A stretch of 64,000 nt of DNA from Octopus vulgaris (Eukaryota). Shown piece by piece: positions 1-31,479 of this stretch. Made by a program: the position numbers and the translations under genes. The stretch is taken from contig OX597842.1 in the NCBI GenBank assembly GCA_951406725.2, positions 23,870,001-23,934,000 on the forward strand, in the 5' to 3' direction. A model generated the notes under the pieces. It worked only from the letters and a program-made list of their open reading frames with translations, was not told the DNA's origin and made no database searches. Every line of letters starts with the position of its first letter. Positions within the stretch are counted from its first letter, which is position 1.

Positions 1-183
1 TAAAATATGAAGCAATTTTGACAAGTTACCTGACAAAAAACACACCTGCAACGTGGAACGTACCACAACTGTTCGTACAGCATCTCACCTGCGAGGCACA
101 GATGCACGATGGGTTGAAACAATCATAGTGAATACTAGTCTTGGAAATTCTATTTTCTTTCTCTTTCTCTCATTTTTTAAACT

Positions 184-635
184 CTACTGACAGGACTGAC
201 TCTTGTGGACTGACTCCTGTGCAGGTGGCAAGTGAAGAAACACCATTTCGACCCTGTGCTTGAGGAGATCCATTGAGTCAAGGACACCAACATCAAATTC
301 AATGGAAACTGCAGTTGTGATCCCTGAGCCGGGAGCACGGAAAAGCACCATCTGAATGTGGCCGATGCCAGTGCCGCCTAGACTGGCTTCCGTGCAGGTG
401 GCATGTAAAAAGCACCAATCCGATCGTGGCCGTTGCCAGCCTCGCCTGGCACCTGTGCAGGTGGCACGTAAAAAGCACCCACTAAACTCAGTGTGGTTGG
501 CGTTAGGAAGGGCATCCAGCTGTAGAAACACTGCCAGATAAGACTGGAGCCTGGTGCAGCCTTCTGGCTTCCCAGATCCCCGGTCAAACCATCCAACCCA
601 TGCTAGCACGGAGAACGGACGTTAAACGATGATGA
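184..635 (+). mobile_element. Retroposon (SINE/RTE-type) 3' portion ending in (GAT)n; mirror at ~30660-31110
   Basis: Ends acccatgctagcacggagaacggacgttaaacgatgatg. The same tail recurs at ~56040-56095, ~56260-56310 and ~42010-42065. Confidence 0.65.
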
Positions 636-854
636 AGGAAATCCTCAAGTAAATCCAGTGTCATTCAAATCCATACTGTCGATAACATCAGATAGCCAAA
701 AACAGTGAGAAGGCTTTAAACGGCATACTACAAGATGTCTATGCAAATTTAAAATTGTCACTCCGTCATCATTTAAAGTCCATTTTACACACTGGCATGG
801 GTTGGATGGTTTGAAAGGAGGTAACCAACTGAAGGGCTGTTCAGGCTCCATCTC

Positions 855-1262
855 GGATCTTTTCAGTTTCAATGGCAGATTTTCTAGTGGTGTCATATGA
901 AATTGTCACCCATAATTATGACCCTAGTATCGATCTATTGCATTTCAATCTGTTTTAGGGTTAGGGGTGGCGGGAATGGTTTCTTTTTTCTTCACAAATG
1001 TAAATAAACCCAATCTGTTTCTTAAACGAGGGACATATTCATACGGCACAGAATGTTTTCACCTCAATAGACGTCATTGATAGGTTGAAATTGCAGAAAT
1101 TGAAGAAAAAAACAACAAATATCTTACAAACTATATAATTTTCTCAATACAGCCAAGAGAAAAAGATGTTTTATAAACACATTCTACCAGTATACGAAGT
1201 TTAAATGTGTTTAGTTACGAGGAAATCATTTTAAAAAACTTCCGTTCAAACCGAAAAGATCC
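855..1262. mobile_element. MITE-like element with ~25-bp imperfect TIRs; mirror at ~30033-30440
   Basis: Left end ggatcttttcagtttcaatggcag; right end reverse complement ggatcttttcggtttgaacggaag. Internal ttagggttagggg. No clear TSD. Confidence 0.6.
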
Positions 1263-27006: not shown

Positions 27007-29284
27007 AATTTTCCTTTCTCTCGTCACAGTACACAAATGTTTTCCTTCTTCTCGTATATTGCTCTTAACAAATATTTCTACTGATATATCTCCATCAAAA
27101 GTGATCTTTGGTAATATCTGAAGATGCTGCAAACTGCCTTCTTAATTGCTTTAACTCATTAACATTCAGATTACTCTGTCAAATGTAATGATTATTTATT
27201 CAAATTCTACTGAATTAATCATTCATTATCTTATTGCTTTAAGATTTCAACGATGTGATTCTTTATGTTTATATGACATTGCAGGGTGAGTGTAAGAGGA
27301 CAGATGTGGGCAGTTTTAACATAAAATAGCTTAAACGTGTGGGACTGATATGCCCAGATGAACTGGTGAAGGATTAATTCAAATACAAATATAATTTTCT
27401 GTGTATTCCAGACAATAAAGAAGAGAAATTTTGCTACATATATGTCAGAGTTCAGAAGATATATTTTGCAGTAATTCAGTATATATTTATAGAAACAGGG
27501 TTATACGTGTTATGAGTAAGACGTTCAATACTAATGATGTAGTTTATATAAAATCCTGTGATGCTGAGGTCATCTGATAATCTGAAACGAAAGAGAAACA
27601 ACAGTGTAAAACATACAAGATAATTAGGAATTAGAGAGATTAAAACAGTGAAAGTTTTACTACATTTTTATATAGACATGTCCATAGAGGTGCAGAGATG
27701 GTTGTGTGGTAAGAATTTTGATTCCCAACACACAAATCTAATAAGCACACCCATTTTCTTCCTTCATTTCACTCCTTTCTTGAATTCCCAAGATTCCCTG
27801 TCACCATCCAATTCCATTAACGTGAATTTGAATTTGAATGCTTGAGACATTGTGAATCTTTCTTTAGCTGATTACACAACCATGGATACGTTGCAGTTAC
27901 TCTCTTCATAGAGCCTAGTGATCCTGACCCCTGAACTACAAGGTTCCCTCTGCCCAGCATCAATATAAGAAGCATTGTTGGTTCAGCTGAGTTCTTCTGC
28001 TGCTTCTGAACAAACTGCCATGCTGCAGTCCCAAAGTTCGTCACAGAGTACCCCAGGCGAAAAAATGGTTAGAAATCACAACCGTTCATTTATATTTTAT
28101 TTGGAAAAAGGGAAAGTGGACCTCGGTGGAATTTGAACTCGGAAACTAATAATAATAATGGTAAATTAATTATGTGCAATACTTAATTAACAAATGCTCC
28201 ACCACCCATACAATGTGATGTGTGTCAGTTATGTGTGGGTAGGATCCCAGCAAATGTATTTCATCATATTAAATTCCAATATAATCGTAATATACACAGT
28301 CTGGGTACTACTAGCGAACAGTGGTCCCGGTATGCGCACTGTCGTAAGTAGTCGATCCTACAATAATTTAAACTAAGTAAATATGCTATTTTTATAAACA
28401 AACTAAGGTTAGGGTTAGGTTTAGGGTTAAAAAGTCGTTGTAGGATCGACTACTTACAACTAGCTAGCGCGAGTGCGCGCACCGGGACCAGTTTCGCTAG
28501 TAGTACCCACAGTCTGAACAGTATTTGTAGAAAATTTCATGAAAGTAACATAATTTCCCTCGTTTCATCAGGTTTCGAATATTATTTGCGATGGGTAAAA
28601 TCTAAACAAATTTTGAATTTCCAAAGATTTGCGACAATAAAAGGTTTTGTACAAAGAGAAAACGAACTTAAATCTAAAAAATAAGACGAAATTATTACTT
28701 TACTCACGATTAAATCTAAATCGTTATCTTCGAAGGAGTCCTTTTCCCTCCAGTTTTGATACAAAAGAAGAAATTCATCCAGAAAAGTCGCTAATTTCAG
28801 AAAAGGGATCAAAGAACTTCTCAGACACCAGAAACGATCCTCATCAAAAAACATACCTTTAAATATGGGGTGTGTATAAAACATGAATTGGTTAGTTTTG
28901 AATACCGAAACGAATATTAGTATTGTACCAAACCTAACAGCAATTATTTAGGCCAAACATTATTTTCTTTCTATTTTGTTTTGAGCTTAAATTCGGTCGA
29001 TGTTAATTTTACCTTGCATAGCTTCGGAATCAATAAAATAAAGATTCAGTCAAAAACATAAGTCGATGGTAGTTACTAATCTATCCCCCACTGATATTTA
29101 GAAAATACTGATATTTAGAAAATGTGAAAGAGAAAGAAATTCATAAATAATTTTTTGCTTGAGTGTAATGGAAAACAAGTTAAATTTAGTCTTCTTTTAC
29201 AACCTTTTTCTATTAATTAAATGAAAAATTAACCTTAGATAACTAAATAACCTTAAGTGTGAATAAAGAGCTCTTTAAATGTAG

Positions 29285-29335
29285 AGTTATTTCCCCCTAG
29301 CAATTCCCGCCCTTTTTCTCCCGCCATATTTTCCC
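29285..29335 (+). promoter_or_regulatory. Candidate core promoter motifs (E2F/GC-like TTCCCGCC, a second TCCCGCC, YY1-like CCGCCATATT); mirror at ~1960-2010
   Basis: aattcccgccctttttctcccgccatattt in otherwise AT-rich DNA. Downstream GTAAGT donors at 29670 and 29800, acceptor at 31575-31576. Confidence 0.35.
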
Positions 29336-31479
29336 ATTCCCTGCTGTTGATTGACCCTCGTGGATATTACCGGTCACATCCGTTCAACAGATAAGATTAG
29401 CTGAGATTTAATTCGATAGACGTGATTGCTAATTAAGCATGTAGAGAAATCATCTACTGAATTCTTTATTACGCTAATCTTAAAAACATAACGTCTATAA
29501 TAAAACCTAGAATTTCTTACGAAGCTGTCATCGTCTACCTTGGCTTAAGTTCTCACTACCTGTACATACTGCGACCTCGTCCTTACCGGATCTAAATATT
29601 ATCTGCTTATTGTCCACAATGGATTGATTGTGACACCTTCCTCCTCTACATTAGGTCTATAAATAATACGTAAGTATTATATATATATCCTGCCATTGTC
29701 TGTCGTAGCTGAAGTTCTCATTTGGACATCCGTCTCTATAATAGATTTGTTATTAATGTATCAATATTGTTCACATCAACGATTCTTTTTATGTGTTCAG
29801 TAAGTTAACAGAAAGAAACTGAAGGAAATAGAGAAATGTAACGATAATAATTATTGTTATAATCTATATACGGAAGGGTCTCACCTAATGTAAAGTAAAT
29901 GTGAATTATCGATATTGGGTTAACTAAGAGGTTTATCTAAGCAAGATCAGAATTCCAGTCGAAGCAAAATTCTGGTTTAACCCCTCATAACTTCTTTACC
30001 TTTTAAATTTTCAGGAAATGTTTGTAAATTTGGGATCTTTTCGGTTTGAACGGAAGTTTTTTTAAAAGGATTTCCACGTAACTAAACACTTTTAAACTTC
30101 GTATACTGGTAGAATGTGTTTATAAAACATCTTTTTCTCTTGGCTGTATTGAGAAAATTCTATTCTTTGTAAGATATTTGTTGTTTCTTTCTTCAATTTC
30201 TGCAATTTCAATCTATCAATGACGTCTATTGAGGTGAAAACATTCTGTGCCGTATGAATATGTCCCTCGTTTAAGAAACAGATTGGGTTTATTTACATTC
30301 TTTACAAAAAGAAACCATTCCCGCCACCCCTAACCCTAAGACAGATTGAAGTGCAATAGATCGATACTAGGGTCATAATTATGGGTGACAATTTCATATG
30401 ACACCACTAGAAAATCTGCCATTGAAACTGAAAAGATCCGAGATGGAGCCTGAACAGCCCTTCAGTTGGTTACCTCCTATCAAACCATCCAACCCATGCC
30501 AGTGTGTAAAATGGACTTTAAATGATGACGGAGTGATAATTTTAAATTTGCATAGACATCTTGTAGTATGCCGTTCAAAGCCTTCTCACTGTATTTGGCT
30601 ATCTGATGTTATCGACAGTATGTATTTGAATGACACTGGATTTACTTGAGGATTTCCTTCATCATCGTTTAACGTCCGTTCTCCATGCTAGCATGGGTTG
30701 GATGGTTTGACCGGGGATCTGGGAAGCCAGAAGGCTGCACCAGGCTCCAGTCTTATCTGGCAGTGTTTCTACAGCTGGATGCCCTTCCTAACGCCAACCA
30801 CACTGAGTTTAGTGGGTGCTTTTTACGTGCCACCTGCACAGGTGCCAGGCGAGGCTGGCAACGGCCACGATCGGATTGGTGCTTTTTACATGCCACCGGC
30901 ACGGAAGCCAGTCTAGGCGGCACTGGCATCGGCCACATTCAGATGGTGCTTTTCCGTGCTCCCGGCTCAGGGATCACAACTGCAGTTTCCATTGAATTTG
31001 ATGTTGGTGTCCTTGACTCAATGGATCTCCTCAAGCACAGGGTCGAAATGGTGTTTCTTCACTTGCCACCTGCACAGGAGTCAGTCCACAAGAGTCAGTC
31101 CTGTCAGTAGAGTTTAAAAAAATGAGAGAAAGAGAAAGAAAATAGAATTTCCAAGACTAGTATTCACTATGATTGTTTCAACCCATCGTGCATCTGTGCC
31201 TTGCAGGTGAGATGCTGTACGAACAGTTGTGGTGTGTTCCTCGTTGCAGGTGTGTTTTTTGTCAGGTAACTTGTCAAAATTGCTTCATATTTTAATTTCT
31301 GTTTTGCTTAATTCAATTAGAATATATTTTGGTAGTTGGATTATTTGAAGCTTCTTTTAGTTTCCATCTACCAAATCCTTGCCCAAGGCTTTGATTGGCC
31401 ACTCTGGGACTGAACCCAGGACCATGTGGTTGGGAAGCCAACTTCTTACCACACAACCATCCCTGCACTTCTACAGCCA

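Follow-up and report, generated by a model that had tools for sequence, protein, structure and literature searches.

A degraded 24-kb mirror arm in an Octopus vulgaris zinc-finger gene cluster is probably the second pass of a fold-back read built into the assembly

In the genome assembly of Octopus vulgaris (GCA_951406725.2, here G000; 2.8 Gb in 227 pieces), a cluster of C2H2 zinc-finger (ZNF) genes contains a sequence that is mirrored about position 15113 of the stretch analyzed here (the window: 64,000 nucleotides, positions 23,870,001 to 23,934,000 of contig OX597842.1, or G000:C29:23870001-23934000; coordinates of zero or below are contig positions minus 23870000). The original prediction had placed a mirror at this point, and it is borne out, although the whole is larger than was claimed, at ~51 kb. 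Of the two origins that had been offered for it, a self-primed chimeric molecule taken up into the assembly is the one supported, by deletions on one side only, ZNF frames that are broken up in one arm, an abrupt stop at a scaffold gap and the polarity of the loop. We conclude that the mirror is very probably a sequencing artefact, counting together two forms, a read through a covalent hairpin and a read in which the two strands of one duplex were called in succession. More specifically, the sequence suggests that the left arm is probably the second pass of one self-primed, nanopore-type hairpin read, assembled as a contig end.

The left arm comprises 24,064 bp, is collinear with 15117 to ~42400 and extends beyond the start of the window until it stops at a 100-N scaffold gap (-9054..-8955; G000:C29:23860946-23861045), 9 kb before the window. 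The two arms thus represent the same locus on opposite strands, collinear over 24 kb versus 27 kb and separated by a loop of 7 nt, as in fold-back reads, in which the break falls within 200 bp. Within the window, 1-9670 mirrors 31294-21610 at 96.5%. As a whole, the structure falls short of a near-perfect palindrome: per base of the right arm, identity amounts to 74% over 15261-22600, 98% over 22601-32100 and 64% over 32101-42400 (zones Z1, Z2 and Z3, respectively; Table 1), and the shortfall consists almost wholly of bases that are absent from the left arm. Because the arms differ by insertions and deletions (indels), an ungapped comparison of the mirror is unsuitable. The last ~530 bp of the left arm matched only themselves in G000 at E<=1, and no distal junction joining the arm to unique sequence or a telomere was found before the 100-N gap, which may hide one. 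A possible second fold-back in the contig left of the gap, at ~-13650, was rejected, as it amounted to merely 1.4 kb at 87.7%.

Table 1. Coordinates of the mirror and of the ZNF genes within its arms
Feature	Coordinates	Strand	Description
Apex	15104..15122		Native 6-bp inverted repeat TAAAAC/GTTTTA around a native 7-nt loop in + orientation
Perfect core	14962..15264		148-bp identical arms on either side of the loop
Right arm	15117..42400	+	Well-assembled native sequence and probable template of the mirror; C27 paralogs side with it where differences could be polarised
Left arm, Z1	8710..14965	-	Degraded copy of 15261-22600
Left arm, Z2	1..8709, on to -813	-	Copy of 22601-32100 at 98%; indels and substitutions are balanced
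Left arm, Z3	-814..-8424 (outside window)		Degraded copy of 32101-42400, followed by ~530 bp unmatched and then the gap
C2H2 ZNF frame	15623..16708	+	Intact, 361 aa between stops, with 9 fingers recognised by their pattern; PF13465, PF00096
C2H2 ZNF frame	32009..33763	+	Intact, 584 aa between stops, with 17 fingers recognised by their pattern
Third ZNF paralog	26040..27659	-	Head to head with the 31499 copy across a 3.84-kb spacer; mirrored at 3633-5250

The arms are unequal in one direction. Z1 occupies 6256 bp on the left versus 7340 bp on the right (length ratio 0.85), with 197 deletion events on the left versus 36 on the right and 707 mismatches, while Z3 occupies 7611 bp versus 10300 bp (0.74), with 235 versus 26 events and 936 mismatches; the binomial p values for this asymmetry are 5e-28 and 3e-43, respectively. 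Over these two zones combined (~17.6 kb) the left arm is short of 15-26% of its bases, and 432 deletion events fall on it, compared with 62 on the right. Z2, on the other hand, measures 9523 bp versus 9500 bp (1.00), with 17 versus 16 events and 155 mismatches. The left arm is therefore shorter, less accurate and missing bases, as is the second segment of a fold-back read, with the exception of Z2. Gap events in three natural paralog pairs were distributed 7 versus 7, 12 versus 7 and 1 versus 5. The density of indels is 32 per kb in Z1 and 25 per kb in Z3, compared with a median of 4.7 and a maximum of 13 in 39 natural pairs, which were alignments of at least 2.5 kb at >=90% identity, a filter that biases the baseline toward low gap counts. 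Such one-sided loss of a sixth to a quarter of the bases, in coding and noncoding sequence alike, would be unlike evolutionary decay. Transition bias did not separate error from evolution (400:307 in Z1; 90:65 in Z2).

Differences between the arms were polarised by means of paralogs on assembly pieces C27, C29 and C6 (alignments of at least 700 bp at >=89%), which cover 5122 of 7340 positions in Z1, 9075 of 9500 in Z2 and 6589 of 10300 in Z3. At substitutions, the paralogs supported the right arm only, versus the left arm only, in 347 versus 21 cases in Z1 and 320 versus 77 in Z3 (667 versus 98 for the two zones), and bases polarised as deleted numbered 673 on the left versus 3 on the right in Z1, 23 versus 2 in Z2 and 1433 versus 11 in Z3. 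Consistent with this, the fraction of 25-mers shared with paralogs was 0.152 in the left arm versus 0.478 in the right for Z1, 0.627 versus 0.608 for Z2 and 0.235 versus 0.473 for Z3. The changes sit on the left arm, and the symmetric or near-identical arms of an in vivo inverted duplication were not found. Nevertheless, 19 of 24 rare alleles of the ZNF copy that begins at 15104 are kept in the left arm (4 are deleted and 1 is different), which indicates that this arm was copied from this very gene, even though it is ~26% divergent. The two ZNF frames that are intact in the right arm are broken up in the left: the left mirror of the 361-aa frame (~13650-14640) carries 42 indels, 33 of them frameshifting, and has zero intact fingers, and in the mirror of the 584-aa frame, outside the window, the longest open stretch is 111 aa. 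The third ZNF paralog spans two frames (26040-27141, minus strand) even in the right arm, where it is either a pseudogene or affected by residual consensus error.

At the centre of the mirror lies a short natural inverted repeat, as is also found in fold-back duplications in vivo: TAAAAC (15104-15109) and GTTTTA (15117-15122) enclose TTTCACT (15110-15116), ~60 bp upstream of the likely splice acceptor (...TTTCAG, ~15182) of a ZNF exon. That this micro inverted repeat is older than the mirror had been proposed beforehand and holds true, as it is intact in 14 of the 22 copies of the motif counted in 404 kb of assembly sequence with <=2 mismatches permitted. The native upstream flank (...tgtag) precedes 21 of the 22 copies, 2 of which lie inside the left arm; only at 15104 is it replaced by the mirror, and none of the other 21 copies in the 404 kb is the centre of a palindrome. 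The 33-mer that spans the junction occurs once in G000. When fold-back junctions were placed at random, microhomology of at least 6 bp arose in 1.3% of 200,000 trials, and in 0.21% of 300,000 trials with microsatellites masked. Neither an adapter nor a low-quality insertion (~35 bp) is present at the junction in the assembled sequence, although polishing could have erased one. Because the loop stands in the native + orientation, the continuous native strand should be the minus strand, so that the right arm would have been read first and the left arm second. The degraded arm is indeed the left, as this polarity would predict, although, with only one read, a true palindrome would show this agreement half the time.

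These features suggest the following course of events. A DNA fragment of at least 27 kb would have ended near 15104 with a minus-strand 3′ overhang, whose terminal GTTTTA could have annealed to the TAAAAC 7 nt away. Fill-in and ligation would then have sealed the end as a hairpin, either during library repair or earlier, in one cell; hairpin-capped ends in yeast are described as arising by like chemistry (PMC10622511). A covalent hairpin closed in this manner is favoured because no ~35-bp adapter is seen at the junction. On its first pass the pore would have followed the right arm along its minus strand; beyond the loop it would have met the complement, and re-zipping of the strands during this second pass may have caused faster translocation and dropped bases. 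In nanopore reads of inverted duplicates, the second arm is reported to pass faster, to contain miscalls and lack bases, and to be shorter than the first (PMC7229812), and to be of low quality (PMC9484634). The read was presumably left untrimmed in this repeat-rich ZNF cluster, and polishing or consensus building would have mended only the 9.5-kb middle, by means of reads that came from the other allele or a close, perhaps unplaced, paralog. That the left arm ends at a gap would be consistent with a break near the middle of one read from one molecule.

Several observations weigh against this explanation. The polarised substitutions in Z2 are balanced (55 versus 69, p 0.24) and allele-like at 98% identity, and a raw second pass would not be expected to yield so symmetric a zone, such that the polishing step has to be invoked. 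The apex hairpin is weak, at -1.7 to -1.8 kcal/mol, and both the platform and the origin from a single molecule are things that we infer. In addition, degradation of the left arm does not by itself prove that the junction is artificial, as true palindromes are reported to degrade as well (PMC7229812). Because real palindromes can also suffer in their second arms, the case for an artefact rests on the combination of one-sided loss, 17.6 kb left unrepaired, lack of a distal junction and the terminal gap.

A different route to the same artefact does not involve a covalent hairpin. In a follow-on event, template and complement of one duplex pass back to back and are called as one read, and the junction might later have been tidied onto the micro-repeat by alignment and by polishing with native reads from both sides. 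Follow-on events are described as the dominant class of nanopore fold-backs (10.64898/2026.06.24.734375; PMC12870357); they would yield the same error asymmetry and the same dead end, and the 148-bp perfect core may reflect polishing of this kind. They typically carry ~35 bp of adapter (10.64898/2026.06.24.734375), whereas the apex has neither adapter nor low-quality insert; chance would supply the 6-bp microhomology in only 0.2-1.3% of random junctions, and the heavy loss of bases would suggest strands that re-zip while tethered. We therefore consider the follow-on route unlikely. Z2 might alternatively be a real 9.5-kb inverted segmental duplicate at 98% that resides here, with only its flanking zones misassembled. 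Its symmetric differences and its paralog 25-mers, nearly equal in the two arms, are in keeping with this idea, as are the pairs at 98-99.6% over 6-14 kb in the C27 clusters. However, the mirror runs collinear and unbroken through Z1, Z2 and Z3 from a single apex, and the position of Z2 is thus set by the fold-back, which makes a resident duplicate very unlikely. A real allele, or a paralog that was not placed, may be the source of the left Z2 sequence itself.

It is also conceivable that a living animal carries this structure as a new palindrome of >50 kb, primed by fold-back at the 6-bp repeat in the germline and duplicating three ZNF genes, of which the second arm was poorly sequenced or assembled; such events may then be the origin of the head-to-head gene pairs in this cluster, which is rich in inverted pairs. 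If true, this would tie fold-back priming to the growth of a gene family. Natural repeats of 3-15 bp centre fold-back inverted duplications in yeast (PMC10622511), and real palindromes too are reported to degrade the second arm of nanopore reads (PMC7229812). On the other hand, reads that lie within an arm should mend the two arms of a real palindrome alike, but raw-read quality persists over ~17.6 kb of the left arm. Instability would be expected of a palindrome that long (>20 kb) around a loop of 7 nt. Moreover, the mirror shows no distal junction to unique sequence, 0 of the 21 other motif copies centre a palindrome and other inverted pairs have kb-scale spacers. Taken together, these points render a germline palindrome extremely unlikely.

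Reads and contigs of several sequencing runs were compared with the apex and its surroundings. Raw reads, sampled at ~3% of each run, gave 10, 12 and 0 hits on 12600-17950 (runs X21, X22 and X23, respectively), none of them at the apex, and the arms were almost bare. In run X1, no contig fell on 2 of 30 bins, and these two belong to the degraded left arm (13316-13673), although a hole in contigs proves nothing. Over 15080-15145 there were 14 contig records in 3 of 4 runs (X15, 6; X2, 6; X5, 2; X1, 0). Contigs of the public runs X15, X2 and X5 carry the native flank directly before 15104, and in 4 records the loose end is this native flank. None of the 14 records covers both 15103 and 15110, as a record of the junction would, but we attach no evidential weight to this absence because there are many copies of the motif, rare variants are lost from contigs and the runs may come from individuals other than the one assembled.

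As for the growth of the ZNF cluster, the other origin that had been suggested for the mirror, that it captures a mechanism of this growth, is unsupported: the other inverted ZNF pairs examined have spacers of ~2.6-8.5 kb and balanced indels, and none of the other 21 motif copies in the 404 kb centres a palindrome. This case therefore lends no support to fold-back priming as a growth mechanism. The genuine units of the cluster are head-to-head ZNF pairs, such as 27659/31499, and five more are present in the C27 stretch with a period of 13-18 kb. The left-arm mirror of the 31499 gene (-1254..-204) is a mosaic, the first ~1 kb of which is closer to the 15104 gene, and over ~710 bp the copy at -204 is 96.2% identical to the 15104 gene versus 90.9% to its own mirror partner at 31499. 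Such a mosaic would be expected if reads across the sequence that really precedes the 15104 gene, homeless in the assembly, had been drawn to this place, and it favours repair by mis-recruited reads; gene conversion is a biological alternative. The contig left of the gap breaks off 340 bp into another copy of the ZNF start motif, on the + strand (-9394..-9055). This copy was considered as the true upstream partner of 15104 and could not be established as such, as it shows 7 differences in 340 bp versus 2 for the copy at -204 and 3 for two C27 copies.

Further duplications were noted in and around the window. At C27:22700890-22732576 there is a 13.3-kb direct duplicate at 99.6%, with a 100-N gap nearby, and this cluster and a second (C27:23485379-23499739, also with a gap nearby), ~770 kb apart, hold inverted copies of 11-14 kb at 98-99%; the near-identical C27 copies are either recent segmental duplicates or uncollapsed haplotypes. 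A 94% copy of a 1.5-kb piece of the right arm (~19046-20586) lies on another chromosome-scale piece, at C6:383702-385259. Within the window, a 139-bp unit is repeated in tandem 18 times at 96% identity (44382-46876); this unit, which apparently belongs to a dispersed repeat, recurs in shorter arrays at 39654, 47094 and 62498.

If the mirror is an artefact, ~24 kb of sequence and three phantom ZNF copies, two of them pseudogene-like, should come out of the assembly in curation, which also lacks the sequence that truly lies upstream of the 15104 gene. Counts of ZNF genes and dates of duplication in this cluster would likewise be inflated. More generally, deletions confined to one arm, the polarity of the loop and an abrupt end at a gap could serve as a diagnostic for fold-back artefacts that requires nothing but the assembled letters.

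The mirror resembles the fold-back reads that are a known artefact of nanopore sequencing (PMC12870357), in that one locus appears on opposite strands with the break within 200 bp and a second half that is shorter and inaccurate (PMC12870357; PMC13141652; PMC7229812). Inverted-repeat chimeras are reported to make up 0.18-7.33% of ligation-library reads (PMC13141652), and fold-back chimeric reads are known to disturb assemblies (PMC12870357; PMC13141652; PMC7229812). Unlike raw fold-back reads, the present one is fixed in a scaffold, has 6 bp of microhomology and no adapter insert, and contains a middle zone at 98%. Palindromes from whole-genome amplification are reportedly self-primed hairpins formed in vitro at short inverted repeats. 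There is no sign of amplified DNA here, in contrast to such products, and it would be enough for a fragment end to be filled in and ligated. The strand-displacement hairpins described for T7 are comparable, as extension there starts from a 3′ end that has paired with a short inverted repeat native to the sequence, and the second arm reads poorly (PMC9484634). In vivo fold-back inverted duplications, known from yeast sae2/mre11 mutants and from cancers, share the short natural repeat, the small spacer and the hairpin-capped intermediate (PMC10622511), whereas their products, as described there, have replicated, near-identical arms and a stabilising second junction; here, one arm is corrupted and no second junction is seen. 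Finally, the cluster itself conforms to the tandemly expanded C2H2-ZNF clusters reported for octopods (PMC9795677), in which multi-finger genes are clustered and have expanded by local duplication, and its genuine units, set against those tandem clusters, are head-to-head pairs with kb-scale spacers rather than palindromes with 7-nt loops.

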